Positions 4,613-34,816 of a DNA stretch of 64,000 bases are shown here, in pieces (the stretch's first letter is position 1; every line of letters begins with the position of its first letter). Location of the stretch: contig CAVOCY010000001.1 of assembly GCA_963694385.1 (NCBI GenBank), forward strand, positions 2,186 through 66,185, given 5' to 3'. The notes beneath the pieces are model-generated. The model was not told the DNA's origin, searched no databases, and worked only from the letters and a program-made list of their open reading frames with translations. Origin of the DNA: Candidatus Altimarinota bacterium. GTDB lineage: Bacteria > Patescibacteriota > Gracilibacteria > Peribacterales > Peribacteraceae. The translations under genes and the position numbers were made by a program.

Positions 4613-6351
4613 AATTCTCCCGCCAACATCTACCGTACCTCATCCTTCTGGGGTTATTTTTGATCGCATTTTTCTGGGGGCTTTCTGCTGGAATACTTGG
4701 ACATGATTACTTCTACTTCTTCCCAAAGCTTTTGGATGGGAAGTGGCACTTTATGCGCCAAGGCCTTTCGATGTTCTACTACACCCCACACATGTGTGGA
4801 GGATTTCCGGAATATGCCAATCCACAATCTATGTACTACAGTCTGCAGCAATTCCTCGTGCTGTTTTTGGATATGTGGCTCGCTGTTCGTCTTACGATCT
4901 TGATCTCGATGGCTATTGCCTACGTTGGTTGGTATCGCGTAGGACGAGATTTGATCAAGTTGAATCTACACTGGGCACATCTACTGGCTCTGATTATTAC
5001 AGCGCATGGATATCACTTTATGCACATGATTCCGGGGCACGTTGTCTTCCATAGTATGCCTATTATTGGATGGCTGCTTTGGTTGCTGTTTGATCGACGT
5101 CAGCACTCCGTAAAAGAATTGATAGTAAAAGCTGCATGGTTTGCGCTTGCAACTGCCTACATCCTCTATAGCGGTGGCTATATGGTTGCTGTCATGGCAC
5201 TCTTTGCGGTCGTTGCGCTACTGCCATATGAATTGATATTGCACGCTTCTGATCTGCGCTCTCGATTGAAAGTATTCATGAAGAACGTCATTGCCTGTGC
5301 TATTGGTGGAGCACTCATCAACAGCAGCAAGCTCGTTGCTACGTTTAGTTTTCTCAGATACTTTCCGCGAGAGGTACCATTTGAGCGCCTGTGGGATGAC
5401 ACGAGTATCTTGGTCTATATTTTCCGCGCACTGTTTGCTCTACCACAGAACAATGATCTCTACTGGGAGTTTGGTATGGGTAAATGGGGAGCGTTTCATG
5501 AGTACAGCTTCCTCGTATCACCTGTGATTTTGGTCGGTCTTGGCTGCAGCGTGTACCTTCTCTGGAAAAGGCGATCTGCAATCTTGAATCACAAATATCT
5601 ACTGATAGTGACTGCTTTAGTATCAATGATTCTTTTGATGTTCCTCATGCAACTCATGCAAGGATACGGATGGATGGTAACCCCACTCGAGCACCTGCCA
5701 ATATTCAGGGGGCTCCACGTTAATATGCGCTGGCTCTATGCGTTTTCCTTCTTACCTATTATCACTGGAGTGTGGGGTTTGCAGCAGTGCTTTGCACGCT
5801 ACTCACGCAACTTCGTTATTGCAGGAGGAGTAGTGACAATCGTCGCTTTTGTCTGGGGATACTACGGTATTTTGCACACCAATACTCTTCCACGCACACT
5901 GCCCTACCCCGAAATTATTGCAGCCCTAGAGACGCAAGAAGACTACATGGATCTGGATGTCGAAGACGCTTTCGATATGCGTGAAATGGGGCACAGTGGT
6001 TTTATTCCACTCATCTTTGGTGGTAACCACATTTACTGTAGCGAACCGATGTTACTCGGTACTTCGAATGTGCCCGACACAATAACTGTTGGTCCAGTAA
6101 TGCAGGAAAGTAATGGATTTCTGAACATGTATAACCCTGCATGCATGGTGTATCCCAAGGCAAATGATTGTGAATCTGGTGATCGTATTCTTGCATCCGA
6201 CAAAGAGAACCTCGAACGATTTCGCACCGGACAAAAGACAACCTGGAAGATGTCTCCACTCCAACACATCAGCAACTGGATTAGTCTATTTACACTAATT
6301 ACCAGTTTGATAATTATCATTCTACGTAAAAAGTTAACTGTTAATTGTTAA
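4609..6351 (+). CDS. Polytopic membrane protein, paralog 3 of 3
   Basis: 580-aa ORF whose ATG overlaps the upstream stop (ATGA). It carries the same conserved blocks, and its C-terminal codons run into a heptamer repeat. Confidence 0.75.
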   Translation: MKFSRQHLPYLILLGLFLIAFFWGLSAGILGHDYFYFFPKLLDGKWHFMRQGLSMFYYTPHMCGGFPEYANPQSMYYSLQQFLVLFLDMWLAVRLTILISMAIAYVGWYRVGRDLIKLNLHWAHLLALIITAHGYHFMHMIPGHVVFHSMPIIGWLLWLLFDRRQHSVKELIVKAAWFALATAYILYSGGYMVAVMALFAVVALLPYELILHASDLRSRLKVFMKNVIACAIGGALINSSKLVATFSFLRYFPREVPFERLWDDTSILVYIFRALFALPQNNDLYWEFGMGKWGAFHEYSFLVSPVILVGLGCSVYLLWKRRSAILNHKYLLIVTALVSMILLMFLMQLMQGYGWMVTPLEHLPIFRGLHVNMRWLYAFSFLPIITGVWGLQQCFARYSRNFVIAGGVVTIVAFVWGYYGILHTNTLPRTLPYPEIIAALETQEDYMDLDVEDAFDMREMGHSGFIPLIFGGNHIYCSEPMLLGTSNVPDTITVGPVMQESNGFLNMYNPACMVYPKANDCESGDRILASDKENLERFRTGQKTTWKMSPLQHISNWISLFTLITSLIIIILRKKLTVNC

Positions 6352-6353
6352 CT
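6333..6353. repeat. GTTAACT GTTAATT GTTAACT heptamer array / hairpin at a convergent gene junction
   Basis: Read directly. AGTTAAC can pair with GTTAACT. The array spans the stop of paralog 3 (+) and the stop of the M23 gene (-). Confidence 0.8.
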
Positions 6354-6354
6354 G

Positions 6355-7398
6355 CTATTCCAGATACAACACCGGATTCTTCTTGATACCACTGACACGT
6401 ACTTCAAAGTGCACGTGGATTCCTGTGGCACCATACACAAGCCCTGTGTTTCCCATCCAAGCGATTGTTTGTCCGCGTTGTACACGATCCCCTTCTTTGA
6501 CATGCAAATCTTTGTTGTGCCCATAAAGCGTCAGTAGGCCGTTCCCATGATCGACTTCTATCACATTACCGTACCCTCCATTCCATCCCTTATCTGCACG
6601 CACAACTATTCCATCTTCTGCAGCGTAAATCGGTCCCCCAAGTGAGCCACCACTTTTATCCTGCATATCCACAGCAAAGTGGCCTCCGTGGAATCGCTGT
6701 GTGTAGAAACAGGTTATGCTACACGGTTTTTGCAATACTCCTGCAGTTGGCGTTGGCGTAAACGGCGCAGTAGATTTTACTACAACTTCAACTGGCTTCT
6801 TTACTGGCTGTGCTGGATCCTCTGTAGATGGCTGCTCATCTACAGTAGCTACTTGTACCTGTTTTTCGATAATAGGACTTCCATGTGGAACAATCAGCTG
6901 TTGCCCCGCCATAATAAACTCACTCTTCAGTTCGTTCTGCGACATAATTTCATTCATCGGAATATCGTAGAGCTGCGCAATGCGCGAGAGTGTCTGTCCA
7001 CGAGAAACCGTATGAAGTATTCCATCCACTGGCAAAATAAGGAGCTCGTCTCCAGGGCGAATAGGCACTCCTGCCTGCAAGTGGTTTGCCCAACGAATCG
7101 TATCAACAGATACCGGATACCACCGAGAAAGTCGCTCGAGGCTATCGCCATCTTTTACAATATGGATTGTCCCCTTCGCATATGCCCTGCGAGACCCTTG
7201 CCTTGTTAGGGGGGACGTCTTTTTGATAAAACCATCCTCTACCAATAAAAACTTCTGTGCAGCGAGTGTTTGGGTTGGTGGGGCAAGAGCTGCTTTTGGA
7301 ATGTACGGTGGCAAGAGAGATCCTACAAAAAATACGACAACACATGCCACTTGAATACGCCTGATAAGCCAACGATGTGTTGGAGGGACCGGACTCAT
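6355..7398 (-). CDS. LysM-domain M23 family metallopeptidase
   Basis: 347 aa with an N-terminal anchor and two LysM-like segments (HIVKDGDSLERLSRWY.., HTVSRGQTLSRIAQLYDIP..). The C-terminal M23 signature is present (GGYGNVIEVDHGNGLLTLYGH ... GIHVHFEV). Confidence 0.85.
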   Translation of the reverse strand: MSPVPPTHRWLIRRIQVACVVVFFVGSLLPPYIPKAALAPPTQTLAAQKFLLVEDGFIKKTSPLTRQGSRRAYAKGTIHIVKDGDSLERLSRWYPVSVDTIRWANHLQAGVPIRPGDELLILPVDGILHTVSRGQTLSRIAQLYDIPMNEIMSQNELKSEFIMAGQQLIVPHGSPIIEKQVQVATVDEQPSTEDPAQPVKKPVEVVVKSTAPFTPTPTAGVLQKPCSITCFYTQRFHGGHFAVDMQDKSGGSLGGPIYAAEDGIVVRADKGWNGGYGNVIEVDHGNGLLTLYGHNKDLHVKEGDRVQRGQTIAWMGNTGLVYGATGIHVHFEVRVSGIKKNPVLYLE

Positions 7399-8267
7399 GG
7401 TTCAATTCTTGCAACAGGCTCCGGGTCTGTCTCTAGCGCAGAGAGAATCGTACGCATATCTTCATACCGTTGGTTGGAGTTAAAAATAACAACGATATAG
7501 GATTGATCTACTCCTTCTACTACTGATACCAAACACTGTCCCGCATCACTAGTTGTTCCTGTTTTTCCTGCCATCACAGGGCCAACCTCATGCAAAAGTG
7601 CATGCGTGTGATACAACTGAATACTGTCACCTTCATTACTAGCAATCCGCTGCCCTGCACTACTCATGCGACTTGCTATCTCTTCGTAGCGCAAGCTAAA
7701 CATCGTCAGCCAAGCAATGTCTTGTGGTGTCGACCAATGTGCTGGATGATCCAGCCCTGCGGGGTTTCTAAATGATGTCCCCGTCATTCCCAATTGCAAA
7801 GCACGCGTATTCATTTCTCCTACAAAAGCAGAAACAGAACCACTGTGGAATTGTGCAAGTGTCACCGCTGCATCATTTGCAGAATTAATTAAAAGAGCCG
7901 AGAGCAAATCTCCAACATCAAAATGTTTTCCAGGTGGGAGGTATGCTTTGTTCCCCGTTACATCTAGAACACTTTTTGGAACGGTTACGATTTCATTAAG
8001 ATCGTGATTTTCTACAATAATTAGTGCAGTCATAAGCTTTGTAAGGCTCGCCATAGGACGCTGCACCCGTGCTTGCTTTGCATACAATCGCTGCCCACTC
8101 GCTGCATCAAAAATTACTACTCCAGATGCAGAAAGACGGTCTACAAGCTCTATCGCCTCACTTGATGGGGCAATATGCACCTTATCCAATGTAGAAATAT
8201 CAGTAGATATGGCATCTCCAGCCGGAAACAAGCCCAAAAGAAGCACTGATAGGAGCGATCGATACAT
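7395..8267 (-). CDS. D-alanyl-D-alanine carboxypeptidase (S11 / PBP5-like)
   Basis: 290 aa with a signal peptide and the SxxK (SLTKLMT), SxN (NSAND) and KTG (GKTGTT) motifs in canonical order. It overlaps the downstream M23 gene by 4 nt. Confidence 0.85.
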   Translation of the reverse strand: MYRSLLSVLLLGLFPAGDAISTDISTLDKVHIAPSSEAIELVDRLSASGVVIFDAASGQRLYAKQARVQRPMASLTKLMTALIIVENHDLNEIVTVPKSVLDVTGNKAYLPPGKHFDVGDLLSALLINSANDAAVTLAQFHSGSVSAFVGEMNTRALQLGMTGTSFRNPAGLDHPAHWSTPQDIAWLTMFSLRYEEIASRMSSAGQRIASNEGDSIQLYHTHALLHEVGPVMAGKTGTTSDAGQCLVSVVEGVDQSYIVVIFNSNQRYEDMRTILSALETDPEPVARIEP

Positions 8268-12942: not shown

Positions 12943-13571
12943 TCACGCTCTTCCCGCAATTTACTGATCGAATAGACTGTCGTTTTTTAACGAAGAATGA
13001 TGATCGCAACGTTCCCGACCCCCGAGTTTGCCTTAATCAAATCCATGGAAATCGCACAATACTTTCTCGCGAACCAATGGAAAGTTCCGAAGAAGCGGAT
13101 GGAGTAATAACTGACCAAAAAGGATTACATCTCTTTATCCGCGCGGCCGACTGTCAGAACTTCGCGGTGTATGATCCGGTGCTCCACATTGGCGGTGTGT
13201 TACATGCCGGATGGAAGGGTATCGTCGCTGGTGCGATACCAGAATTTTTTCGGGTCTTTTCTGATACATTTGAGACTGATATTTCGCAGATTTTTGTCAC
13301 TGCTGGCCCCTCGCTCTGTAAGGCCTGTGCAGAGTTTTCGGACCCCAAATTAGAGCTGCCAGAGATCGATACTCAGTACGTTGATGGGAGGTGCGTAGAT
13401 CTCCAAAAAGTGGCCCAAGATCAAATGGTGGCGGCAGGGGTACTCCCCCAAAATTTCTTTCGGCACCCAGACTGCACCTGTTGCCAACATGAATCGTATT
13501 GGAGTTATAGAGGGGGAGACAGGAAAAGCGTCCAGAATGGGCAATCAAATATGCTTATATTGACGATTTAA
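12939..13571 (+). CDS. pgeF: YfiH/PgeF (DUF152) purine nucleoside phosphorylase / laccase-domain protein
   Basis: The ATG at 12939 overlaps the nnrD stop (ATGA). Motifs RAADCQNFAVYDP, HAGWKG and GPSLCKACAEF are present. Confidence 0.85.
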   Translation: MITLFPQFTDRIDCRFLTKNDDRNVPDPRVCLNQIHGNRTILSREPMESSEEADGVITDQKGLHLFIRAADCQNFAVYDPVLHIGGVLHAGWKGIVAGAIPEFFRVFSDTFETDISQIFVTAGPSLCKACAEFSDPKLELPEIDTQYVDGRCVDLQKVAQDQMVAAGVLPQNFFRHPDCTCCQHESYWSYRGGDRKSVQNGQSNMLILTI

Positions 13572-13651
13572 GTACAAATATCCATTTAATTGACATTTTT
13601 AACTAATTCATTACTATGCTACTAATTATTTAGTATATATAAGGATATCTT

Positions 13652-16600
13652 ATGGCTAAAAAGAAGCGCCCATCACTGGCGAAAGCTGCTGCTGACGCAG
13701 GTCAATTAGACCAGAAAGAACTGCCGGTAGGGAGAGCATGGTTTTTAGAACAACATGCCACAGCCCTTGTTGCTATAGAAACTATCGTTATAAATCTGCG
13801 TAAACGACTCGCAAAAACAGCTGATCGTAAAGGGGGCAGAGATCTTGAACCTCTTTTGGACATTGTCCGTACGCAAATACCAGAAGCAATACGTAATTTG
13901 GCACCTGTAAAAGTTATAAAATTGGATCAAATACAGGGGGCAAATGGGCTTTGTGAATCTATAGAATCACTGGTGGATGATGCACGTAAATCAGTTCCAG
14001 CTGGTCGTTCGAAACTGCAACAGGAACTGCTCCAGCAATTAGGCGATGTACAACAACGAGTGCAAGCACGTGCAGGAGAAATTACAGAGGCGAAGGATGC
14101 AGGACAACAAACGAAGAAGCCCTTCGTGCCAGACTGGGATCCTGTAACTCCTCCAGAGCCTGAAGTTCCTCTTACTCCAGTCGAAGAAGCATATGCGCTT
14201 GTCGATGTATATTCCGAAAAGGAGCGCGCAAAATTTATTGGTGAAAAACTCGTCAATCTTTTGCACGAAAAGTACTGGGATTTTCTTTCGCAAATTAGTG
14301 AACCGCCAATCAATTTATCGGAGCAAGTTACTGCAGGCACTATCAAGAACCTCTCTACTGTATGCATAGCACTGGAGGCTCACATAGGAAAAATATGTGC
14401 AAATGCTCAACCATTAGATTTGCAGGATATGCAACAAGCACTACTACTACCGATATCATTAGAAAAATTCTCTCTGCCACCTGCTATCGAAGGAGCATTA
14501 CACACTACAATAATTAGCTCTCTACGCACATGCATGGATGGCATCTCAGAGGATGAAGAAATGGTCTACATGTTATCGGATATAAAAGAACATATTCGAT
14601 ATGATAATGCGGATGACATACAGACCGTACTTCTCTGGGAAAAAGTAGAACAAGGAGAAGACTTTCCACTGCAACAATTTGAGCGCGAATATATTGCGGG
14701 TAGAACACCCGCAAAACGCAGAAGAATTAAATCAGCAGCCAAAAAGGCTGATCTCTGTGCAGAAATTGCTGTGCATCTCAATACGAAATATCACGGAGGA
14801 TTTTCTCTGCGCTCAATGGCAGATATTCAAAGAATTATGGCTGCATCGATTACACCTAAAAAGAGGCGCCTAGCAGCATCTCCAGTTGTAGCAGATGATA
14901 AGTCAGCAGCATCTCCAGTTGTAGCAGATGATAAGTCAGCAGCAGATCCAGTTGTAGTAGATGAGAAGTCAGCAGCAGATCCAGTTGTAGCAAGGAAGAT
15001 ATCAACATCAGCCCCCGTGAAGTTGCAACCAGAATCGCAACCAGTTATATCGCAACAAGATGCAGCTGCAGTCGCAGCGTTTGCACAAGGTCTTCCTGCT
15101 AGGCCAATAGCACCTGCTAAGGCGCAAGCAGTTAAAGAACAAAGTGTTCTAGAATTTGATAAGCGCGAACTAGATCACATGACGACGTTGATAATCCCTA
15201 CAGGTATTACTGATACTACGGACGTTCGTCTTCATACTGAATTGCGTACTACTCTCTGGAGAAGTCTTAACGCAACTCTCTATGGCGATTCTGATAAAGC
15301 AGTAGAAGAAGTCTACGGCCATACGCTTATGAACCAAGCGATTACTGCTGCCGCTTTATTAAAGCCTGTAGAGGAATACACTCCTACAGTAGCCCCTAAA
15401 TCGGAAGAAGTAGATCCAGATGCTTCAACACAACAAGAGCGCAATGTTGCACTTGCTATGGTTCGATCATGCAAAAAGATTGATACCGCATTAGCTAGAC
15501 GTCTTCGTATGGGAGTGAATATTAAAAGGGGGAAAGACAAGCTATCTCTTCGCGAGATTCCGTTTATCGAAAGTCTGATTGTAGAAACTCTGATAGAGCT
15601 GAAGAGAGAAGATGAAATTGCTACAGCAGGATTATCAACAGTAGTTGTAGAGCCTGTGACTGAAGAAGCTCCTACTGATGTAGAACCTGAGACTGATGTA
15701 CCTGAAGTTGTAGAGCCAGTTGCTGGAATACCTGTAGCTGTAGCTGTAGCTGTAGAGCTAGTGACTGATGTACCTGAAGTTGTAGAGCCAGTTGCTGGAA
15801 TACCTGTAGTTGCAGAACCTGTGATTGAAGAATCTCCTACTGATGTAGAACAAGTAGCTGTAAAATCTGTAGTTGTAACTACAGAAACTGTAGAGCCTGT
15901 AGCTGCTCCCCCTGCTGCAGAAACTGAAATAGAAGGAGAACTAGAACTCGAAGTGTTGCATATAGCTATGCGAGCACGCGCTGCAATGATTGAAGAATGG
16001 ACTACTGTCCAAGCATCTATAAAACGCATCACTGGCGAAGCAAATCAACTAGATGCGCAGCTTGTAGAACTTGAATCACAAGCAGACACACTCGGTGAAA
16101 CAATGGGGAATCTGATAACAGAATTGTTCTCAGCAGAAACGAGTAAACTTTTTAACCACTGTAGGATCGAAATCGACACTGGTGACTTTAAGCAAAGTCC
16201 CCGAGCAGATATACAGCAATCTGCAGAATTTTTGAAGAGTGCAATTACGAAACTTCAAATATTCAAAGATCTACAAGCACAACTAGAAAAAATGCGAGAG
16301 GCTATAAATGCATTACACGAGGAATACAAAACTCTTTCTGGCTCTGCACAACGTGCACAAAAGTTTCACAGCAAAGCAACAAGGGAAACCTTTGGTGTAT
16401 GCATGCAAGAATTCCTACCGGATGAAGACAGAGATCGCCTACAAGAAATTCCAGAATTTATTATGACTCTGGACGCAGCAAAAGAAGAAGTGGGAACTGT
16501 GGATCAAAGCCATATTCGTGGAATGGAATTATCTATAGAACAGGCAGGAATAGGGGTAAAATTCTCAGAAAAAGAACTAGAGAAAGCAAAAATGGGATCA

Positions 16601-17263
16601 AAGCATGACAAACAATCCCCAGCCCAAATCGAACAAATTTTTATTGAGTCTTTACAGATCGTACAGGCATTTTTGAATCCTTCAGCAAAAGCAAAGAAAG
16701 AGCCAGTTCCTAAGCCAGCATCTAAGTCGGCTCCTAAGCCATCATCAAATGGCAGTGCCAATGTCGACAGTCTTCCAGAGCTTACGCTAAGCGAACTGCA
16801 AACATCACTCATAAAGCTTATGACAGCCCAGATAGGAAACAGACATCCTCGACACACGACATGGGGATTTACAGCGGCAACTATTCGAACATTCTGGATC
16901 GAAACCTTTGGGGGCAACGATACTCCCTCAGAAGACGAGATCTGTACTGCGCTCAGTGATGCACAACTCACTGGAGATGTTCCTATACACGCCATGAACT
17001 ACCGTCCTTCAAATACAGAGATGCACGATTTCCGTAGAGCACCGCACTACATGACCAGGTGGGCCAATAAAATCAACGAGATGTTTTTGCCAACACATAG
17101 AATATTTGACTATGCAGAGCAGAATGAAATGGCCCTAAAAGAAGAAGAATTCGATCTACTGAAAACACACCGTGATGCTCAAAAAGCTGATAGACAGAAA
17201 CAGAATTGGGGTGGCAAGAAGAAGAAAACAACGAAGAGGAGAACGGGTGGAAATGATGCGTAA
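13652..17263 (+). CDS. Large (1203 aa) orphan protein: basic termini, coiled-coil-like segments, acidic V/P/E-rich tandem repeats
   Basis: Single long ORF with an AAGGA SD 8 nt upstream and an AT-rich upstream region (TTGACA...TACTAT). I recognise no catalytic motif. Internal 33-nt and 72-nt period repeats are present. Confidence 0.8.
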   Translation: MAKKKRPSLAKAAADAGQLDQKELPVGRAWFLEQHATALVAIETIVINLRKRLAKTADRKGGRDLEPLLDIVRTQIPEAIRNLAPVKVIKLDQIQGANGLCESIESLVDDARKSVPAGRSKLQQELLQQLGDVQQRVQARAGEITEAKDAGQQTKKPFVPDWDPVTPPEPEVPLTPVEEAYALVDVYSEKERAKFIGEKLVNLLHEKYWDFLSQISEPPINLSEQVTAGTIKNLSTVCIALEAHIGKICANAQPLDLQDMQQALLLPISLEKFSLPPAIEGALHTTIISSLRTCMDGISEDEEMVYMLSDIKEHIRYDNADDIQTVLLWEKVEQGEDFPLQQFEREYIAGRTPAKRRRIKSAAKKADLCAEIAVHLNTKYHGGFSLRSMADIQRIMAASITPKKRRLAASPVVADDKSAASPVVADDKSAADPVVVDEKSAADPVVARKISTSAPVKLQPESQPVISQQDAAAVAAFAQGLPARPIAPAKAQAVKEQSVLEFDKRELDHMTTLIIPTGITDTTDVRLHTELRTTLWRSLNATLYGDSDKAVEEVYGHTLMNQAITAAALLKPVEEYTPTVAPKSEEVDPDASTQQERNVALAMVRSCKKIDTALARRLRMGVNIKRGKDKLSLREIPFIESLIVETLIELKREDEIATAGLSTVVVEPVTEEAPTDVEPETDVPEVVEPVAGIPVAVAVAVELVTDVPEVVEPVAGIPVVAEPVIEESPTDVEQVAVKSVVVTTETVEPVAAPPAAETEIEGELELEVLHIAMRARAAMIEEWTTVQASIKRITGEANQLDAQLVELESQADTLGETMGNLITELFSAETSKLFNHCRIEIDTGDFKQSPRADIQQSAEFLKSAITKLQIFKDLQAQLEKMREAINALHEEYKTLSGSAQRAQKFHSKATRETFGVCMQEFLPDEDRDRLQEIPEFIMTLDAAKEEVGTVDQSHIRGMELSIEQAGIGVKFSEKELEKAKMGSKHDKQSPAQIEQIFIESLQIVQAFLNPSAKAKKEPVPKPASKSAPKPSSNGSANVDSLPELTLSELQTSLIKLMTAQIGNRHPRHTTWGFTAATIRTFWIETFGGNDTPSEDEICTALSDAQLTGDVPIHAMNYRPSNTEMHDFRRAPHYMTRWANKINEMFLPTHRIFDYAEQNEMALKEEEFDLLKTHRDAQKADRQKQNWGGKKKKTTKRRTGGNDA
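14873..14992 (+). repeat. 33-nt tandem repeat x3.6 (AASPVVADDKS units) in the 1203-aa gene
   Basis: Units 1 and 2 are identical, and units 3 and 4 are diverged (AADPVVVDEKS). Confidence 0.9.
15691..15809 (+). repeat. 47-nt exact duplicate at 72-nt period (TDVPEVVEPVAGIPV) plus a (GCTGTA)x3-4 run
   Basis: gactgatgtacctgaagttgtagagccagttgctggaatacctgtag occurs at 15691-15737 and again at 15763-15809. Confidence 0.9.
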
Positions 17264-17426
17264 ATAATGGACTTTTCTAGAATTTATGGTAAAGTGCATA
17301 ACCAAGCACCCAAAAACACGCTTGGATTGTTCCTTGGCACTATCGGCGTGCTAATAAAACTAAAACACTGCCCTTCACCTGGGCAACCGCAATGCACGGT
17401 ATGCATACTTAGGAGTTCACGAAGCC

Positions 17427-18278
17427 ATGTCCAGATTACAAACTAGTCGACGACAAGCATTAGTGCTTGCTATGCAAGATCGTGGATTCACGATCAAGCA
17501 GCTTGCGGAATCGGTAGCTGCCAAGCCCGCAAATGTCGCGGATGAAGCGAACCGCATCACTCGAATTCGTAGAAAGGACAAAAAATCTATCCTCCTGCGA
17601 CAGGAGGATGCCGTGCGATACGCGGCAGCTCTCGAAGTTCCCGTCAACCGCCTTCTTGCGGGAGAATTGACCTCCGAAGAAAAAAAATCCAGTGGCGGAT
17701 GCAAAGCAAAATCTGCTGCGCCCAAGGCGGGGAAATCCAAGTTGGAGAAACGAACAGCTGTCCTGAAAACCCGTAAGAAACTGGCTGCAGATCGCTTTAC
17801 AGCTCTGACCACAGCCCTCTGTGGACGTGGTCACGCTGCACTACACAGTCAACTTGAAGCTGCAGGGAAGTTGCAGTGGACAACTGCAATGGTGAAGTCA
17901 TACGTTCGGGGAACACGGTTCCCCAACAAAGACTTCTTGACGGACGTAGCAGAACTTCTGGGTGTGGACCTCAAAACCCTCACCATCCGTGAATCTCCTC
18001 TGGAGAATCTCGGACGAAGACCTGCAACAGTAACACCTGTTGTAACACCGGCTGTATTGTCAGCATTGAATGCAGACACAGGTATTCCTGTGAGGGTGTT
18101 TTGCAACGAACTTCTCGGGGTAAAACACGAAGATCGCATCGTTTTCGACGCTCCTACCCGATCATTTCGGGGACAGAACGTTGAACTCGTACCCAACAAA
18201 GGCGGATTTGACCTCGTCGTGAGAATCCCCGTCACAGGAGACATTTCGAAAAAATTGTTGGGTCTCGTGACCCAGTGA
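17427..18278 (+). CDS. Protein with two XRE/Cro-like HTH modules
   Basis: 283 aa with AGGAG 11 nt upstream. HTH-like module 1 is FTIKQLAESVAAKPANV...VRYAAALEVPVNRLL. Module 2 is WTTAMVKSYVRGTRFPNKDFLTDVAELLGVDLKTL. It is followed by its own terminator. Confidence 0.65.
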   Translation: MSRLQTSRRQALVLAMQDRGFTIKQLAESVAAKPANVADEANRITRIRRKDKKSILLRQEDAVRYAAALEVPVNRLLAGELTSEEKKSSGGCKAKSAAPKAGKSKLEKRTAVLKTRKKLAADRFTALTTALCGRGHAALHSQLEAAGKLQWTTAMVKSYVRGTRFPNKDFLTDVAELLGVDLKTLTIRESPLENLGRRPATVTPVVTPAVLSALNADTGIPVRVFCNELLGVKHEDRIVFDAPTRSFRGQNVELVPNKGGFDLVVRIPVTGDISKKLLGLVTQ

Positions 18279-18305
18279 ACAGCACGCCACCCGCCAACGA
18301 GCAAA

Positions 18306-18337
18306 GCCCCGTACAATCGATGTATGGGGCTTTTCTT
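18306..18337 (+). terminator. Rho-independent terminator after the 283-aa HTH gene
   Basis: Stem GCCCCGTACA / TGTATGGGGC (one G.T pair) with loop ATCGA, followed by TTTTCTT. Confidence 0.75.
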
Positions 18338-18351
18338 AGCACTATAGGCAA

Positions 18352-18379
18352 TTGACTAATGGTCGAAATAGCGTATAAT
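18352..18379 (+). promoter_or_regulatory. Near-consensus sigma70-type promoter
   Basis: TTGACT (18352-18357), a 16-nt spacer, then TATAAT (18374-18379). The ORF-track ATG at 18359 lies inside the promoter, so it is not the real start. Confidence 0.65.
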
Positions 18380-18382
18380 ATT

Positions 18383-18451
18383 GTGCCCATTTGGCAATTT
18401 GGCACATTTTTGTGCCTTTTTTTGCTATTTGGGACGGTCCTTTACACCGTC
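18383..18451 (+). promoter_or_regulatory. Structured leader / operator: alternative hairpins and a T7 tract
   Basis: GTGCC (18383-87), TTGGCA/TTGGCAC direct repeats (18391-18405), then the palindrome GGCACA-TTTT-TGTGCC (18401-18416) followed by TTTTTTT. A second hairpin GACGGT/ACCGTC lies at 18433-18451. Confidence 0.5.
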
Positions 18452-18508
18452 GGCTCACTATACAATTTACCGAATCAATCGGATCACCCAACTCAAAGGA
18501 ACAGTAAA

Positions 18509-19369
18509 ATGAAGAAGACTTCGAAGAAAGAAATGCGAATCGAGAACAAACAGTTCCGAGCAAAGGTCAAGGAAGGCAAGCTGCTCGGGTACTGGGTCAA
18601 CCAGAAGGACTGTGCCGAAAAGATCGGCATACCCCGAAGTACATTTGGAGGATATGCGGCGGGTTTTATTCATGGAGAAAACGTCTTATTGGCAATTGCA
18701 GCAATGCAAAAGCTAATCGACGCAGCTCCACCGCCAAGTATTCCTCCGGCCTCGACAGAACATCCACTTCAAGACCTCCTTCAACGAGGAAAAGACGCGG
18801 GTCTCTGGAAGGCTATCTCGTCCTGTGCGAATGTTCTAAAGAAAGATAGAGACACTATCTCTCGCTACCTCGACATGGAAAAAGAAGGCACTGTCGACGA
18901 TAGTACTATGCGCGAACGGGCTTACTACGCAAAACTCCTCGCAGCAATGCGAAGAAAATTGAGTAAAGGCTCGGCTGCACCACCAGGTGACCTGCCACCG
19001 GAGCGAGGACACCCCTCAGCTCCTGATGGTGTCGTCGCATCTCCGTATTACGACCGGCTCCTTGCCGGCGTTGCGGAGTTCGAGGACCAGAACCTCGGTG
19101 GTGTGCGTTTCGTTCTGACACAAAGAAACTTCAAGAGACTGAAAGGTGTCGTGACGAAACAGGAAGTAGCAGATACCAAGCTTCTCATCGAAGAATTGCG
19201 TCGCAGGTTAAACCTTGTGGCACAAAATAGCGATGAAGAGGTGCGGGCTCTGTGCTACCGCGAACTAGGGCAAGAGCTGGAAGCGCTCTTGAACGCTGCA
19301 GAAATCGTTCAGGAAGTAATTCCAACTGCAGCAGTTGCACGCTTGGAAAAACTTCGAAAAAGTCTCTAA
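18509..19369 (+). CDS. HTH-containing protein (about 286 aa)
   Basis: The start at ATG 18509 (AAAGGA 10 nt upstream) is chosen because the promoter lies downstream of the ORF-track start. The HTH-like segment is VNQKDCAEKIGIPRSTFGGYAAG. The composition is GC-rich. Confidence 0.6.
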   Translation: MKKTSKKEMRIENKQFRAKVKEGKLLGYWVNQKDCAEKIGIPRSTFGGYAAGFIHGENVLLAIAAMQKLIDAAPPPSIPPASTEHPLQDLLQRGKDAGLWKAISSCANVLKKDRDTISRYLDMEKEGTVDDSTMRERAYYAKLLAAMRRKLSKGSAAPPGDLPPERGHPSAPDGVVASPYYDRLLAGVAEFEDQNLGGVRFVLTQRNFKRLKGVVTKQEVADTKLLIEELRRRLNLVAQNSDEEVRALCYRELGQELEALLNAAEIVQEVIPTAAVARLEKLRKSL

Positions 19370-19403
19370 CATTTCTTTTCTCAAATCAGAAAGCTGAAAA
19401 ACC

Positions 19404-21521
19404 ATGGCCAAGAAACAACAAGCTGACAAAAGCGTAAGTGTCGCTCCTGTCATCAACCGCGAACGGGCGTTCCGTTCGGTCTGTCCAAAGTATCGTCCGA
19501 CTCTCACCAGAGTGGTCGAAGCCCTGAGGGAACTCGTGACCAATGGCGAAGATGAGGGTGCGGATGACATCCGTATCTTCATCGAAAAATCGAAGAAGGA
19601 ATTTCGAATCCATGACAATGGTCGTGGATTCGGCGCACGGCAGAAAAAGGGGTTCTTCTGGCTCTTTGAGTCAGAAAAGACGGACCGAAGCGGCAAGAAG
19701 AAACCCACAGGACAACATGGAACAGGGCGACTGCAGACTCTGCGATTTGCAGACTGCATCACTCCGTGTTCCTCCTCGCATGAGGATGCGGGGTTCTACA
19801 AAACGTCTCTCAGCAGAGCTGACGCGCAAGCGATCTGGGAAGGAGACACGACGGCTCGAAAATGGACACCATGTTCCAAGCCGAGTCATTGGCATCTTCC
19901 GCCAAAAGCGCATGGGTCTGTCGTCGACATCACTGTTTCAGATGAGCATTGGAAAGGAATGCCGTCAGTGAAACAGATCATCGATGAATTGGGGAAGCAC
20001 CTCTCACCGCGACTTGAACGGCAAGTCACGGTGAACGGCAAAAACCTCAAACCGAGGGCAGTCGCAAAAAGTTTCACGCAGAGTTTTGATCGAGCTGCGC
20101 TCGAAGAAGAACTCGGCGCGGAAGCAGCTGCGGCGCTCGGCGATTGTCTCGTCGATCTGTACATGCCCGAGAAGTTAGAGAGGGGCAACGACGACATTAA
20201 GTTGGGGGGAGCAAAGAATACAATTTGCTCTCTGTGGGATTTCCTGATGAGTCTGCCCGAAACAGACTTGCAGGATGCCCTCCCTTCGTTGCTGACCTCC
20301 CGAAGTCATCTCTTCGGATACGTCTTCATAGAAGGTCTCAACGAGCACGCTGCCGAGGACCGAAAGACGCTGAAAGACAGCGTCTACGATGGCATGCACA
20401 AACATGTCATCAGGTTCCTGGCGGATGTGGTCGGACCTCTGATCGAAGAAGCCTACGCGAAGAAAGAGGCAGAAGAAGCGAGGTCAAAAAGAAAGAAAAG
20501 CCTCGTGGATTTCTGCAGAGAACTCAAGAAGGCCTTTGACCCTGGCAAGGGCACATTGGCCGACGAGGACTCTGAAGAAACCGTAGAAGACGGCCTCCCC
20601 TCTGGCACAGCGAAAGAGGAAGAGAAAGAAACGAAACGGCCCGCGATCAGTGTAAAGCCGGGATGGTTCCACGCCATCGCGGGAGAAACACAACCAATCG
20701 AGGTTACCTTCCATGAAGGCATCAAAGAGACAGACCTCGAGTGGGTGACGGATGGAGTTAGTGAATGTGGTGCAATTTCTAAGGAAACTGGAAAAAGCAC
20801 GATCTTCACCGCGCAGAAAGTTGGAAGCGGCACGCTGGTCGTTCGCAACAAGCAGGATCACGAGCAGTGTGCGGAAGTCCGCATCCAAGTGGTCGACGAG
20901 AAGAAGTTACAGATCTCGCCGCCGAACGTTCCCGTCGAGCAAGGAAGCACGCAACGCTTCCGCGCCCGAAACCACGAAAGCACGAGTGGGAACATCGGAT
21001 GGAAGTTGGTCACGAAAACGCGTGGAATTCGCCTCTCCAACACGAAGGGGTTGGGAACAACCCTCACCGTCGCGGACGAGGCGAAACTCGGTGTCTACGA
21101 AATCGAATGTTGGGATGTGGACAACGACACCATTCAATGCACGGGAAGATTCGAAGTCGTGCCTGCCGACACTCCCAGCTTCGTGCTGAACGGCAAGACG
21201 TACTACCCCCGCGTGTCAACGGTGCCGCAACCGGAGCCTGTCATCTTGCAACAGGATTGCCTCTTCATGAAAGGAAAGAAGAAAGGCAAGGCTGGCAAGG
21301 TCGAAATCGATTTCGATCACGCAGACTTCAAGAACCTCCTCGCACTTGGCGGGGAAGACGAAGCAACAAGGATGATGATGTTCGAATCGATCATCATCCT
21401 GCATTTGGACAAAGAACTGGCAGCCGGGAACCTCCTCTCCGCCTCGGAGATGACAACCCGGTTCCACGAACTGCGTTCAAAATTCCTTGCAGACCGTGTT
21501 GCTGCAGGGAAAAAGAAGTGA
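19404..21521 (+). CDS. GHKL (Bergerat-fold) ATPase fused to two Ig-like (Big_2-type) domains
   Basis: 705 aa. The N-box E43-LVT-N47-GE-D50, the G1 box D71-NGRGF and the G2 box G103-QHGTG occur in canonical order and spacing. Residues ~414-497 and ~502-586 resemble Big_2 repeats (ISVKPG..AGETQPIEV...WVTDG...FTAQKVGSGTLVV). I see no signal peptide. Confidence 0.7.
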   Translation: MAKKQQADKSVSVAPVINRERAFRSVCPKYRPTLTRVVEALRELVTNGEDEGADDIRIFIEKSKKEFRIHDNGRGFGARQKKGFFWLFESEKTDRSGKKKPTGQHGTGRLQTLRFADCITPCSSSHEDAGFYKTSLSRADAQAIWEGDTTARKWTPCSKPSHWHLPPKAHGSVVDITVSDEHWKGMPSVKQIIDELGKHLSPRLERQVTVNGKNLKPRAVAKSFTQSFDRAALEEELGAEAAAALGDCLVDLYMPEKLERGNDDIKLGGAKNTICSLWDFLMSLPETDLQDALPSLLTSRSHLFGYVFIEGLNEHAAEDRKTLKDSVYDGMHKHVIRFLADVVGPLIEEAYAKKEAEEARSKRKKSLVDFCRELKKAFDPGKGTLADEDSEETVEDGLPSGTAKEEEKETKRPAISVKPGWFHAIAGETQPIEVTFHEGIKETDLEWVTDGVSECGAISKETGKSTIFTAQKVGSGTLVVRNKQDHEQCAEVRIQVVDEKKLQISPPNVPVEQGSTQRFRARNHESTSGNIGWKLVTKTRGIRLSNTKGLGTTLTVADEAKLGVYEIECWDVDNDTIQCTGRFEVVPADTPSFVLNGKTYYPRVSTVPQPEPVILQQDCLFMKGKKKGKAGKVEIDFDHADFKNLLALGGEDEATRMMMFESIIILHLDKELAAGNLLSASEMTTRFHELRSKFLADRVAAGKKK

Positions 21522-21540
21522 GCTGACAAGTAGAGACCCA

Positions 21541-21575
21541 CTCTCCTGGCACATTTGTGTTCAGGAGAGTTTTTT
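21541..21575 (+). terminator. Rho-independent terminator after the GHKL gene
   Basis: Stem CTCTCCTG / CAGGAGAG with a 13-nt loop, followed by TTTTTT. Confidence 0.8.
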
Positions 21576-22016
21576 AGCGTGCCTGAGTAACGTTTTAGTT
21601 CTTACACTGCTCTGATAAGTTGATCAGACTTTTGTTAAGTAGGTTGGGCTAAATGTTAACTTTGCTTACTGGTAGTTCCACCGTACAAACACACGTTTTG
21701 CACTGAGATAAATACCTCACGCAAGCTCTCTTCTTGGACAGTCTACCCCTAGGTCTCTACCATAAGTTCTGTTCTAGATGATTCGTTCTGAATCGGTTAC
21801 GTTTCTTCTCAATCAGCGTTCCCAGGGAGGTTAAATCATGTAGATCTGCGGATCTACGTTGCAACCACCCACCTAACTTACAGGGGACAGGCGTAATCGG
21901 ACGACGATCACCTGGAGATTAGTACACGGATCTAACCTCGCTCAACTGCGGATCACTGCAAGAGTGGGGTTTTTCTTATTCCGCTTCGCAGGATTTTTAT
22001 ATAGGATTACTATCCA

Positions 22017-23126
22017 ATGAAGAATCTCGAAGATCGCCTGACGGCAGCTAACACTCTTCTAGCCCCCTACGCTGTCCCTCACCAGGGAACACTAGGAAGA
22101 AAGGTAAAAGAAGCCCCTGACAGCACGAGGGGCCCATTTGTGCGTGATAGAGATCGTATCGTCTATGCAAAGGAAATGCGGCGTCTTATGGGAAAAACAC
22201 AGGTATTTGTCTCTGGAGAAGGAGACCACAACCGCACAAGACTTACACACACAGCAGAAGTCGTCATTATTAGCCGTAATATTGCACGAGCATTGGGTCT
22301 TAATGAAGATTTGGTGGAATGCATCGCTCTTGCGCATGACTTGGGACATCCTCCTTTTGGTCACTCTGGAGAAGCTGCTCTAAACGCTTGGATGAAAGAC
22401 CATCAATCTTCTTTTGAGCACAACAAGCAATCTCTACGTATCGTCGAGGTTCTTGCTCATCACCCTCCTCTGGCACAAGGGCTCAACCCCAACCGAGAAG
22501 TGTTAGAAGGAATGATGAAACACCGCACACCACATGATAACCCAGAAGATTCCATACCCCGCAATCCTTCTTTAGAAGCACTCGTTGTCAATATCGCAGA
22601 TGAGATCGCCTATACCGGTCACGATGTTGATGATGGACTACGTGAGAACATTCTTACGATGAAAGATCTCAGCCAAGTGGAATTGATTCAATACGCACAA
22701 GCACGAAAAACCCACGCCTCTCTTAATAGCGCCATCGTTGATGCGCTGGTAACAGATCTCTACGCAGAAACCGAGAAACAAATCGACGCGCAGAACATCA
22801 AAACACTTGATGACGTGTATGAGCGATCGGATAACCCTGTGCGATTTTCTACTGATATGCGCAAAAAACTAGATGAGCTTCGCAATTACCTAATGCTAAA
22901 TATGTACTTACATCCGGATGTATTACAAAGAACAGAACATGGAAAACGTATTGTTATCGCATTGTGTGACCACTTCCATAGCACCCCAAATAAACAGGTG
23001 ATGACATTGCAAAAAGCAAATGGCGGTAACCTTGCAGAAGCTGTAAAAGATCACATTGCCGGTATGACCGACGACTATGCTACGGCTACTTTCGAAGCTC
23101 TACCCCCGCAGCAGGAAGATGCTTAA
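22017..23126 (+). CDS. dgt: dGTP triphosphohydrolase-like HD-domain protein
   Basis: 369 aa with RTRLTHTAEV....IALAHDLGHPPFGHSGE and the C-terminal IAGMTDDYA motif. Confidence 0.85.
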   Translation: MKNLEDRLTAANTLLAPYAVPHQGTLGRKVKEAPDSTRGPFVRDRDRIVYAKEMRRLMGKTQVFVSGEGDHNRTRLTHTAEVVIISRNIARALGLNEDLVECIALAHDLGHPPFGHSGEAALNAWMKDHQSSFEHNKQSLRIVEVLAHHPPLAQGLNPNREVLEGMMKHRTPHDNPEDSIPRNPSLEALVVNIADEIAYTGHDVDDGLRENILTMKDLSQVELIQYAQARKTHASLNSAIVDALVTDLYAETEKQIDAQNIKTLDDVYERSDNPVRFSTDMRKKLDELRNYLMLNMYLHPDVLQRTEHGKRIVIALCDHFHSTPNKQVMTLQKANGGNLAEAVKDHIAGMTDDYATATFEALPPQQEDA

Positions 23127-24048: not shown

Positions 24049-24126
24049 AGGCGCGTAGCTCAGTTGGTTTAGAGCATCGGTCTCCAAAACCGGGGGTCGT
24101 AGGTTCGAATCCTACCGCGCCTGCCA
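24049..24126 (+). tRNA. trnW: tRNA-Trp (anticodon CCA), CCA end encoded
   Basis: The cloverleaf was folded by hand: acceptor AGGCGCG/CGCGCCT, D stem GCTC/GAGC, anticodon loop CTCCAAA, T arm GTAGG-TTCGAAT-CCTAC. TATAAT lies at 24032-24037. Confidence 0.9.
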
Positions 24127-24287: not shown

Positions 24288-25199
24288 TTACGCACAATGT
24301 TCATGGCTTTTCTCCCAGTCAGAAAAGCCTTTTTTACCAACCTTCCACCTGCCACGTTCTCGGAAGGCAGGGAGAGATTGTTTTTTTGCAGCGTTGGAAA
24401 TCACCTGTGCAGAATGCTTTGGATGGTCAGCGCCGGCGTCACTTACAAATACAATGTCATCCCCTTCGAGATACGCGATACGTTTATGGAAACTCTCTTT
24501 AAGATGCAAAGCAAAAATCAATTCAAATGGCTTTGTGTCACCCTTTCCATCGTATGCCTGTAATGCTGCGTAGTAGTCTTTCTTCTCTTTATTTCTGATG
24601 ATTACCGGAGGGTAACCAATCGTCTTTAATTGAAAATTAAGCAGCGCTCTACCCACACGACCATTCCCATCAAGGAAAGGGTGAATGTGTTCGAATGCGA
24701 GATGAAACAAAATAATTCTATCAAGAATATGCTCCGACTCATCGGCAAAGTCCGCCATCAAATTATCCATAAGACTAGGAAGTTTTTCAGGAGCTGGTGC
24801 TATATGTTTACCAACACGAACGTACTCTTTGGTCCTACGAAAGCATCCTGCAAAATCATCATTAATGTGACTGAGCAGTGTGCCATGCACTAGTAAGATC
24901 ATATCGTTTGAGAGTGATTCATCCTTCTCCAGCTTCGCATTAAGGTACTCGTTTACCTTCCCGAGATTGATCGCTTCGAAGACTTCTCTTTGACTGCTAT
25001 TTGGTGGAAGAGTTTGATGCTCAAGGATTTGCTCGGTTTCGTCTAAGGTAAGCGTAGAATTCTCAATCGCATTAGAGTTAAATACGAGCTCTGGAAGCTC
25101 CGCTTCCTCCAAAAGGGTAAGGAGGGACTCTTTGCCAATTTTACCCTCATCAAAGCGCTTTTGGAGCTCTTCTATGTTGTTTAGTGTAGTTTTGTGCAT
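24288..25199 (-). CDS. Fic-domain protein (AMPylase family) with an N-terminal auto-inhibitory motif
   Basis: 303 aa. The Fic motif HPFLDGNGRVGR lies at aa 172-183. The motif S42-NAI-E46-N47 matches the (S/T)xxxE(G/N) inhibitory helix. Confidence 0.85.
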   Translation of the reverse strand: MHKTTLNNIEELQKRFDEGKIGKESLLTLLEEAELPELVFNSNAIENSTLTLDETEQILEHQTLPPNSSQREVFEAINLGKVNEYLNAKLEKDESLSNDMILLVHGTLLSHINDDFAGCFRRTKEYVRVGKHIAPAPEKLPSLMDNLMADFADESEHILDRIILFHLAFEHIHPFLDGNGRVGRALLNFQLKTIGYPPVIIRNKEKKDYYAALQAYDGKGDTKPFELIFALHLKESFHKRIAYLEGDDIVFVSDAGADHPKHSAQVISNAAKKQSLPAFRERGRWKVGKKGFSDWEKSHEHCA

Positions 25200-34714: not shown

Positions 34715-34731
34715 TGTTAAACAGTGTAAAC

Positions 34732-34816
34732 GGAAAGTGGAAAGTGGAAAGTGGAAAGTGGAAAAAGCTACAGTATATTAACTTGATTGTTTTCCGTTTT
34801 CCGTTTTCCACTTCTA
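34732..34816. repeat. (GGAAAGT)x4+1 / 22-nt loop / (GTTTTCC)x3+1 inverted heptamer arrays
   Basis: Read directly. Array B overlaps the stop of the TPM gene. Plus-strand RNA would pair fully using G.U wobbles, whereas minus-strand RNA would have A.C mismatches. Confidence 0.9.

Follow-up and report, generated by a model that had tools for sequence, protein, structure and literature searches.

The described systems closest to the locus analysed here are systems of defence, conflict and immune regulation in which a GHKL-type ATP-binding domain is found, together with the GHKL ATPases Hsp90, MORC and the type II topoisomerases. Tiamat (TmtA) is said to be a single-gene defence system made of one large protein, reportedly described by Millman et al. 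in 2022. Prokaryotic MORC-like (paraMORC) GHKL ATPases of conflict systems go back to Iyer, Abhiman & Aravind 2008, as cited in PMC12137116; Shedu type I-D (VcSduA) is composed of a GHKL domain and a DUF4263 nuclease (PMC12137116), and CapK/CapS, composed of a kinase with helix-turn-helix (HTH), STAS and GHKL domains and of a STAS-winged HTH protein, controls immune operons (PMC13373217). The present locus lies in 64,000 nucleotides of DNA from Candidatus Altimarinota bacterium (contig CAVOCY010000001.1 of assembly GCA_963694385.1); this whole stretch is called the window in what follows. Between the genes pgeF and dgt, from ~13499 to 21577, the window carries four genes, encoding a protein of 1203 residues (Big), two proteins of 283 and 286 residues (A and B) and a 705-residue ATPase (the GHKL protein). 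With high confidence this segment is an accessory, horizontally acquired 8-kb genomic island without an integrase, and Big, A, B and GHKL very likely constitute a conserved, linked four-gene module. The joint reading which best accommodates the evidence is that the module is accessory and has moved horizontally, that it works as an ATP clamp directed at DNA, and that it probably serves in conflict or defence; to this reading we assign a probability of about 0.45.

Judged by its sequence, the 705-residue protein is a member of the GHKL (Bergerat-fold) superfamily, all four motifs of which are present: E43/N47 (ExxxN), D71-G73-G75 (DxGxG), G103-G108 (GxxGxG) and G171-S172 (G[ST]). Among 60 aligned members of the family, N47, G108 and G171 are invariant; at least 95% of the members keep D71, G73, G75 and G103. 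The N-terminal half is composed of the Bergerat ATPase domain (~19-200), an alpha/beta middle or transducer domain (~200-330) and a 48-residue helix (331-378); an acidic disordered linker (382-410) leads to the C-terminal half, in which the AlphaFold 2 model, built from the 60-sequence alignment (predicted local distance difference test score, pLDDT, 89.2; predicted template modelling score, pTM, 0.70), places two Ig-like beta-sandwiches (415-497 and 502-586), followed by a beta domain (593-635) and terminal helices (640-704). The first-pass annotation, made from the sequence alone, had proposed a GHKL ATPase with two Ig-like domains, and both parts of this description are borne out.

In Foldseek comparisons, the first ~420 residues (410-430 alignment columns) match the N and middle domains of TRAP1, Hsp90 and GRP94 (4e-12) and the 43K fragments of ParE and GyrB (1e-10; template modelling score for ParE 0.52, normalised to the target); in a viral structure library phage topoisomerase II, RIIA and Hsp90 were matched, the Ig part matching Big_2 proteins. 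A profile search of the PDB returned MORC2 first (2e-14, over the N-terminal ~110 residues, that is, the ATP-binding core), then TRAP1 and Hsp90; further matches were to the phage family phrog_6203 (1.9e-9) and to the sacsin-type HATPase domain of NCBIfam (8e-7). In Hsp90, the middle-domain loop motif LPLNxSRExLQ carries the catalytic Arg, and the motif GYVFIEGLNEHAAEDRKTL of the GHKL protein resembles this loop. On the strength of the predicted fold, the protein resembles the GHL clamp class (GyrB/Hsp90/MutL/MORC). A PD-(D/E)xK nuclease at its C-terminus (FDHADFK) was considered and rejected, the acidic residues not being conserved in the wider family.

Compared with the described systems one by one, the likeness is always partial. 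With paraMORC proteins and MORC2 the GHKL protein shares a Bergerat domain of the HATPase_c_3 type followed by a middle domain, and with paraMORC systems the accessory, fast-evolving character of the genes and the presence of a coiled-coil component; in the island, however, the coiled coil belongs to a giant protein of its own, nothing in MORC corresponds to the two Ig-like domains or to the C-terminal helical module, and no restriction endonuclease, methyltransferase or nuclease gene adjoins the GHKL gene in eight loci. Hsp90, HtpG and TRAP1 give the best fold matches, with N and middle domains aligned over ~410-430 residues, and the likeness extends to the acidic flexible linker, to a loop of the middle domain in which an Arg is conserved (in the subfamily of the window's protein) and to a probable C-terminal dimerisation module; the C-terminal half, on the other hand, is Ig-Ig-beta-helical and not an Hsp90 C-terminal domain, half of the family lacks the catalytic Glu, the three partners come from undescribed families and sit on a mobile island, and Pfam and NCBIfam scans of the GHKL protein returned no Hsp90 family signature. 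The B subunits of type II topoisomerases (GyrB/ParE 43K, Topo VI-B) share the GHKL-plus-transducer architecture, but hidden Markov model (HMM) searches of Big, A, B, GHKL and their homologues found neither Toprim nor TP6A_N, the winged helix with the catalytic Tyr; phage RIIA and topoisomerase II are among the best viral fold matches, but the island has no RIIB-like membrane partner.

Tiamat TmtA is the only defence protein whose PADLOC models are matched repeatedly by the family (20 of the 60 members, best E 1.6e-8), and the sacsin-type match points in that direction too; the likeness to TmtA is limited to an ATP-binding core of ~60-100 residues in a model of 1486 positions, the window's protein matching it over 64 residues at E 0.0037 and thus not at E<=1e-3, and Tiamat is one large protein as opposed to the four-gene module of the island. 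In Shedu I-D and in CapK/CapS, the GHKL domain works alongside HTH domains as the part through which nucleotides control a module of immunity or immune regulation, which recalls the island; the latter differs from Shedu I-D in lacking a DUF4263/PD-(D/E)xK nuclease (Pfam finds no DUF4263 in the GHKL protein), and from CapK/CapS in that none of the four proteins yields a STAS match in Pfam and in that its GHKL protein appears to be of the GHL clamp class and not of the SpoIIAB-type kinase class, so that a CapK/CapS-like kinase module was rejected. The GHKL protein therefore falls outside Hsp90, MORC/paraMORC, the type II topoisomerases, Tiamat, Shedu I-D and CapK/CapS, and the module is a GHKL-centred accessory unit with three partners from undescribed families. 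The earlier statement that no described system has this domain combination holds good: PADLOC, Pfam, NCBIfam, PHROGs, PDB sequence and fold, phage and plasmid searches matched the module to no characterised system, and literature searches found no description of the GHKL-Ig four-gene architecture.

The distribution of the module was followed through its GHKL gene. A first scan of metagenome contigs with the GHKL alignment gave no match; a word-indexed search returned five GHKL proteins and its repetition with the 60-sequence alignment the same five close relatives, while an exhaustive profile search gave 443 relatives, with 124 clusters at E<=1e-10, mostly of 650-710 residues and matched over their full length. 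Among species-representative genomes, a close homologue is found in a single metagenome-assembled genome (MAG), from an uncultured Candidatus Peribacteria; the annotated family members comprise one from Candidatus Gracilibacteria and one from Candidatus Peribacteria. Seven divergent loci were fetched (L004, L005, L007, L008, L009, L010 and L014; loci from the collections are numbered in this way throughout) and their neighbouring genes compared by BLASTP. Homologues of Big, A, B and GHKL were found adjacent to one another in seven loci, namely the window and all of these except L014, which answers the question, raised in the first-pass annotation, of whether homologues co-occur elsewhere; that annotation had, however, treated the 1203-residue protein as an orphan beside a three-gene cassette, and Big proves to be a conserved fourth component lying within the inserted DNA. 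B precedes the GHKL gene by 10-35 nt in all eight loci, L014 included, and the two are a tightly coupled pair; A lies upstream of B in the six other four-gene loci. Big lies upstream on the same strand in the window, L005 and L004, and downstream in convergent orientation in L007, L008, L009 and L010; its homologues measure 1061 to 2048 residues (1061 in L005, 1355 in L007, 1218 in L008, 2048 in L010), with fragments in L004 and L009. In L014, a Gracilibacteria MAG, homology can be demonstrated for B (C-terminal domain) and GHKL only; alignment of its 943- and 409-residue neighbours with Big and A by hhalign found no homology, and they are positional analogues only.

Two further genes accompany the module in L004, a Candidatus Peribacteria MAG. 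A gene for a ClpP-like serine protease (498-1313) lies between Big and A, and the GHKL gene is followed by one for a VirD4/TraD-like coupling ATPase (5676-7913; phrog_5156 4e-64, PADLOC mad8 2e-10), which may connect the module with an apparatus for conjugation or DNA translocation.

The accessory nature of the block follows from its absence from the same pgeF-dgt site in ten related loci (L012, L013, L015, L017 and L019-L024), found by means of homologues of the flanking Dgt and, in a metagenome collection, of a conserved 20-mer from the region upstream of dgt. In all of them the order is nnrD-pgeF-dgt-M23, with ~400 bp of conserved non-coding DNA and no insert between pgeF and dgt; four of the ten are close relatives (NnrD 85-91% identical; Dgt 83% in L021), and the Dgt homologues closest to the window's are annotated as Peribacteraceae or Peregrinibacteria. 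Together with the Peribacteria MAG mentioned above, these annotations place the host, a marine bacterium, in the Peregrinibacteria of the Candidate Phyla Radiation. Occupied sites were found in the window's own population (L001-L003 and L018) and in L005, whose GHKL protein is 81% identical. That nnrD (Carb_kinase), pgeF (Cu-oxidase_4) and dgt (HD and HD_assoc) are core flanking genes, as the first-pass annotation had it, is supported by Pfam; its left boundary at 17264 has to be moved, the insert of ~8.04 kb beginning within the 3' end of pgeF and taking in the gene for Big.

The two junctions can be read almost to the base. On the left, DNA homology to the closest empty-site relatives, L024 and L015, stops at ~13498, and 13496-13555 resembles pgeF as it is found in the distantly related L020 (75% over 60 nt); the last ~24 codons of the functional pgeF are L020-like and its C-terminus differs from the SG[VL]SNVLVLTLL-stop of close relatives. 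On the right, identity to L024 rises from background to 0.93 at 21579, where a displaced remnant of the native pgeF end begins; the 62 nt compared are the pgeF 3' end and downstream DNA of the empty-site loci L024, L015 and L022, and the conserved non-coding DNA follows directly 3' of the remnant. These sequences indicate that the incoming DNA carried its own pgeF end and that the last 12 native codons were shifted 8 kb downstream. These codons are consequently present twice (13534-13571 and 21578-21615), alike as protein (GQSNMLILTI-stop and LSNVLVLTLL-stop) and diverged as DNA, the longest word common to both copies being 7 nt; the earlier remark that no flanking direct repeats were seen by eye has to be amended to this extent. 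It was right about mobility genes: Pfam, PHROGs and NCBIfam scans of the four proteins found no integrase, transposase or recombinase family, and the intergenic spaces in the island, at most 230 bp, leave no room for a further gene. Since the junctions of L005 are the same as those of the window, the insertion is older than the split of the two lineages. The incoming DNA would have come from a divergent Peribacteria donor which already bore the module behind pgeF; the left side may have been formed by recombination within pgeF, the right side, 12 codons short of the stop of pgeF, by illegitimate joining or via an att site that has since decayed. The possibility that the whole pgeF of the window is xenologous was rejected, pgeF being fast-evolving in all comparisons (64-73% where NnrD is 88-91%).

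A different context is found in L007, which shares with the window (28.9-39.4 kb) the gene order DnaJ-311-RecJ-HTH-HSP20-NTP_transferase; its module sits after the NTP_transferase gene, a place that is without one in the window. The module proteins of L007 share 22-30% identity with those of the window, as against 47-74% for the flanking housekeeping proteins.

The vicinity of the insertion site shows variability of its own. Dgt (22017-23126 of the window) is a mosaic, 83% identical to that of L021 (1582-2691) and only 62% to that of L024 (3777-4838), despite NnrD and M23 of L024 being ~91-92% identical to those of the window; pgeF, too, is unusually divergent (64-73%), and the pgeF-dgt interval looks like a hot spot of recombination or variability. 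Dgt matches the dGTPase model of PADLOC at 5e-79, as expected of any Dgt homologue.

The composition of the island is deviant, and the proposal of a compositionally foreign accessory block is upheld. The GC content of 17264-22016 is 0.507, compared to 0.448±0.009 in equal-sized segments elsewhere in the 64 kb (z 6.8), and the tetranucleotide deviation is maximal at 19.5-21.5 kb (z 11.2). The GC-rich block announced for 17.3-21.6 kb is thus real, but its signal is carried mainly by the GHKL gene (GC 0.535; GC at third codon positions, GC3, 0.615, where the window has ~0.30-0.50), the genes of A and B being only mildly shifted (GC3 0.47-0.48, z ~3). Long spurious open reading frames, said to fill every frame at 19.4-21.5 kb, are indeed densest over the GHKL gene (19-21.6 kb), where 11 of at least 80 codons were counted per 2.1 kb against a mean of 5.6 (standard deviation 1.8); they fill five of the six frames. 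The gene for Big has normal GC and the lowest GC3 of the window (0.298), yet its tetranucleotide z is 6.5, and it must be counted as deviant too, because all twelve of the most deviant 2-kb segments of the 64 kb fall within 14-22.5 kb. The gene with the lowest GC3 thus adjoins the one with the highest, a contrast repeated in L005, L004 and L008, which indicates that the two halves of the island differ in compositional history or constraint.

Across hosts, the GC3 of A, B and GHKL stays at ~0.43-0.73 whatever the GC3 of the host (~0.33 in L008, 0.40 in the window, 0.55 in L007, 0.77 in L009), so that these genes look GC-rich in AT-rich hosts and GC-poor in a GC-rich host; this is the pattern of a module moving between genomes of unlike composition. 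A contrast between module and host is seen in L005, L004, L008 and L009 as well, and the module is compositionally foreign in at least four hosts.

As judged by profile searches, the partners Big, A and B, three of the four proteins of the module, belong to no described family: PDB profile searches gave nothing significant for any of them, Pfam searches of all homologues gave HTH hints for A only, and no transmembrane segments were found in any of the four island proteins. Big has a conserved N-terminal region (~1-410), followed by low-complexity repeats rich in Pro, Val and Glu and by a coiled-coil-like stretch (~770-930); its C-terminal domain (~1040-1150; LSxLQ...TWGFT...FW...PSEEEI) is again conserved and precedes a basic tail. 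Read by eye, the C-terminal domain (LSxLQ..L..LL...PSEEEI..AL) may be winged-helix-like. Searches of Big revealed no Pfam, PDB or PADLOC family and no Walker motif, and neither an invariant Tyr nor a DxD was found among its homologues.

A consists of an N-terminal HTH-like domain, a K/R-rich linker, a putative Xre-type HTH (141-183) and a small beta-rich C-terminal domain; the first and last of these are the conserved parts, the second HTH being restricted to the clade of the window. Its best matches are phage repressor families (phrog_8, phrog_4, RstR), with phrog_8, 'transcriptional regulator', at 1.4e-8 and PADLOC HTH_VI at 7e-5, and one homologue matches HTH_26 at 4e-4. Of the two HTH domains which the first-pass annotation had given to this protein, HMM searches thus return one, below the Pfam threshold (HTH_3 over residues 141-183); the terminator which it had placed after the gene stands. 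B, which it had also called an HTH protein, has no HMM support as such: none of seven homologues matches a Pfam family, there is no relative in the PDB, and the only match is to phrog_4151 at 0.018. B of the window contains two copies (homologues one to three) of a helical repeat of ~70 residues (G.W....CA..L...R.T...Y) and a conserved C-terminal domain with the pattern SPYYDRLLAGVAE...RFVLT..NF..L.G.VTK...LI.ELRRR; its orthologues align from residue 1 of the 286-residue form, supporting the start adopted in Table 1. The idea that B is a diverged copy of the HTH of A was rejected, as hhalign found no relation between the two.

Table 1. Positions in the window of the genes of the island, its boundaries and its predicted signals (dG, folding free energy; z, z-score; TRF, Tandem Repeats Finder)
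Feature	Position	Strand	Remarks
Left end of the island: donor-derived surrogate pgeF 3' end (...GQSNMLILTI-stop)	13499..13571	+	boundary fuzzy, ~13498-13535, about ±20 nt
Predicted Big promoter, sigma-70-like, TTGACA-16-TACTAT	13590..13617	+	10/12 matches; sequence kept upstream of Big in L005
Big, 1203-aa acidic protein, no known domain	13652..17263	+	homologues adjoin the GHKL gene in either orientation
33-bp tandem repeat in Big, 3.7 copies, encoding (A)SPVVADDKSA	14872..14992	+	TRF score 200, 94% matches
A, 283-aa basic protein, net charge +21	17427..18278	+	AGGAG 12 nt before ATG
Intrinsic terminator after A	18299..18341	+	13-bp stem, dG -22.7 kcal/mol, z -5.6, then UUUUCUU
Predicted B-GHKL operon promoter, TTGACT-16-TATAAT	18352..18379	+	11/12 matches; kept in both L005 and L004
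Structured 5' leader of the B-GHKL operon	18392..18451	+	dG -15.3, z -4.7
B, 286 aa, net charge +9	18509..19369	+	start 18509 (gene callers), not the open reading frame start 18359
GHKL-Ig ATPase, 705 aa	19404..21521	+	HATPase_c_3 E 7e-8, 32.9 bits against a cut-off of 25
Island-closing intrinsic terminator after GHKL	21530..21577	+	dG -20.9, z -4.65, then U6
Displaced remnant of the native pgeF 3' end (...LSNVLVLTLL-stop)	21578..21615	+	92-94% identity over 62 nt to L024, L015 and L022

The island is organised in three expression units, defined by the promoter of Big, by the terminator after A, and by the promoter and leader of B-GHKL with the closing terminator (Table 1). Both signals which had been proposed for the last unit from the sequence alone, a near-consensus promoter before B and a strong terminator after GHKL, are substantiated by conservation in relatives, the hairpin of the closing terminator being kept in L005 by compensatory changes; hairpins are likewise found at the place of the terminator after A in L005 and L004, with the stem preserved by compensatory changes. 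Transcription of B-GHKL is predicted to start only ~15 nt before a leader hairpin followed by U7 (18401-18426), and another hairpin comes next (18433-18451); both are kept in L005, the first with compensatory changes, and the leader may be an attenuator which controls the operon.

How the four proteins could work together can be outlined conditionally. The GHKL protein would be a constitutive dimer of the GHL class (Hsp90, GyrB, MutL, MORC), which would clamp shut by closure of its N-terminal domains once ATP is bound; B, always encoded directly before it, would be its obligate partner or loader, A a DNA-binding regulator or targeting factor, and Big a long scaffold or effector. In concert they would most likely clamp or compact DNA as an ATP-gated machine turned against invading or selfish DNA, in a conflict (defence or exclusion) system that works in a MORC-like manner. 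That the module acts on DNA is suggested by the HTH matches of A and its charge (+21), the charge of B (+9) and the basic tail of Big, and that it serves in conflict by its accessory status, mobility, fast divergence and compositional behaviour; a DNA-directed conflict function, taken by itself, is a tentative assignment, for which the odds are somewhat below even. A more specific version, by which the module would be an unrecognised immune or DNA-exclusion system specific to Gracilibacteria/Peregrinibacteria, with an Ig-sensor clamp loaded by B and scaffolded by Big, which silences or compacts DNA without a classical nuclease and spreads through natural transformation and homology-facilitated recombination and not by an integrase, is doubtful as a whole.

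Several observations weigh against a mobile, DNA-directed defence module. The neighbours in the eight loci are mostly housekeeping genes and not defence islands; Pfam, PADLOC, PHROGs, NCBIfam and PDB searches of the four proteins turned up no domain of a nuclease, a toxin or another effector; and the anti-phage role which the first-pass annotation had envisaged has gained neither an effector nor a defence-island context from the analysis. No relatives were found by tblastn in 50,697 phage records or 72,556 plasmids, and a scan of IMG/VR viral contigs with the GHKL alignment gave no match to the family. The HTH call of A is sub-threshold in Pfam (HTH_3, 20.6 bits with a cut-off of 23; E 4.8e-4), and B is without any. 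In L007 and L014 the composition of the module is native, and the module could therefore be an old resident of the clade. Finally, the catalytic Glu43 is E in 32 of the 60 family members and Q in the remaining 28; a candidate middle-domain Arg, Arg320, also found in 32 of 60, tends to pair with it (23 members combine E with R, 19 Q with another residue), a split which suggests the existence of hydrolysing and non-hydrolysing (ATP-switch) subfamilies. The protein of the window has both Glu43 and Arg320 and, because the Mg-binding Asn47 is kept as well, it probably hydrolyses ATP.

Some of these observations are at the same time the strength of the main rival explanation, according to which the module would be a lineage-specific cellular machine, either a divergent Hsp90-type chaperone with Ig domains for client binding and with dedicated co-factors, or a nucleoid organiser of the Gracilibacteria/Peregrinibacteria clade, present in most genomes and merely relocating or exchanged. 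The best fold matches are the N and middle domains of Hsp90/TRAP1, GYVFIEGLNEHAAEDRKTL is Hsp90-loop-like, the neighbours are housekeeping genes in all loci, no effector domain was found, the composition is native in L007 and L014, and the family is large in relation to the few genomes of the clade. A resident machine is hard to reconcile with a site which is polymorphic among close relatives, with a module which is foreign in at least four hosts and with its much faster divergence compared to the flanking core proteins; moreover, the GHKL protein has neither the C-terminal domain of Hsp90 nor the HSP90 signature of Pfam, and basic, HTH-like partners suit DNA better than protein clients. We regard this rival as rather unlikely. 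Less likely still, and in our estimate improbable, is that the island is a remnant or cargo of an integrative element targeting the pgeF 3' end, with A and B as repressor- or excisionase-like regulators, GHKL and Big serving maintenance, exclusion or DNA processing, and the recombinase lost, acting in trans or hidden in Big. Entry at the 3' end of a gene, for which the incoming DNA brings a substitute end, is indeed the classical signature of such elements, to which can be added the phage repressor matches of A, the ClpP-like protease and VirD4/TraD-like ATPase of L004, the phrog_6203 match of GHKL and its fold, like the ATPase domains of phage RIIA and topoisomerase II; but the island holds no integrase, transposase, replication or structural gene and no DNA direct repeat beyond 7 nt, the phage, plasmid and IMG/VR searches found no relatives, the donor sequence seems ~35 nt longer than the duplicated segment, so that one-sided homologous recombination fits better than a site-specific core, and it is these four genes alone that recur, in surroundings that differ widely.

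Two other explanations have little in their favour. In a signalling unit, the GHKL protein would be a protein kinase in the style of SpoIIAB or CapK-CapS which phosphorylates HTH regulators and so switches neighbouring genes; a regulator next to a GHKL protein is the arrangement known from CapK/CapS (PMC13373217), and A has a putative Xre-type HTH. The middle/transducer domain appears, however, to be of the GHL type, the matches are to Hsp90, MORC and GyrB and not to histidine kinases or SpoIIAB kinases, no partner has a STAS domain, and the neighbours differ at every locus, so that there is no conserved downstream operon to control; this makes a kinase-type regulator very improbable. The original picture of an HTH/HTH/GHKL cassette of three genes starting at 17264, with the 1203-residue gene as an unrelated orphan, agrees with the confinement of the strongest GC shift to 17.3-21.6 kb and with the low GC3 of Big (0.298), but hardly survives the finding that Big homologues adjoin GHKL in seven loci and in two orientations, that empty-site relatives lack Big as well, that the insertion boundary lies in pgeF, upstream of Big, and that the tetranucleotide z of Big is 6.5.

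The interest of the locus does not depend on its function alone. The Candidate Phyla Radiation (CPR) represents a large share of bacterial diversity and its accessory gene content is little understood; occupied and empty sites in close relatives, with junctions at base level, provide a natural experiment, and indicate that CPR genomes exchange multi-gene cassettes without a recombinase encoded by the element. The cassette in question is a four-gene module centred on an ATPase, probably of the GHL class, whose Ig-Ig C-terminal half is without precedent. If the reading as a defence or DNA-silencing module is correct, a MORC-like and possibly nuclease-free mechanism would be added to bacterial immunity, and there would be a way into the question of how ultra-small symbionts deal with foreign DNA; if the module is instead a core chaperone or nucleoid system, it would be a cell-biological novelty of the clade.

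Between the pgeF remnant and dgt lies a non-coding element of ~370 nt (21616-21985, + strand), present in all 12 pgeF-dgt loci and up to 95% identical where the flanking genes are 60-90% identical. Searched against Rfam, it gave no match at the gathering score or at E<=1. RNAalifold, applied to eight sequences, predicts nested helices, and one of the hairpins is backed by several compensatory changes; G·U pairs, many of them invariant, point to the + strand, and a 3' hairpin with a U-run lies ~40 nt before the dgt start. The element is a candidate for a new small RNA or for a leader or riboswitch of dgt.

Further variation is seen in the same neighbourhood. At 33872-37228, between the homologues of HTH74 and HSP20, the window has four genes on the minus strand which have no counterpart at this place in the syntenic L007, which makes this another variable spot; L007, in turn, carries a RelB/YafQ toxin-antitoxin pair (260-834) between Jag and DnaJ which is not at that place in the window, L012 or L013. 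Downstream of dgt, the window encodes a tRNA-Trp (24049-24126) and, on the minus strand (24288-25199), a Fic-domain protein which matches the PADLOC candidate-defence model PDC-S04 (1.6e-36) and SoFic (9e-33); as its gene is syntenic in L012 and L013, it is not part of the island. In L012, an extra gene for a RelA/SpoT-domain protein lies between M23 and the Fic gene.

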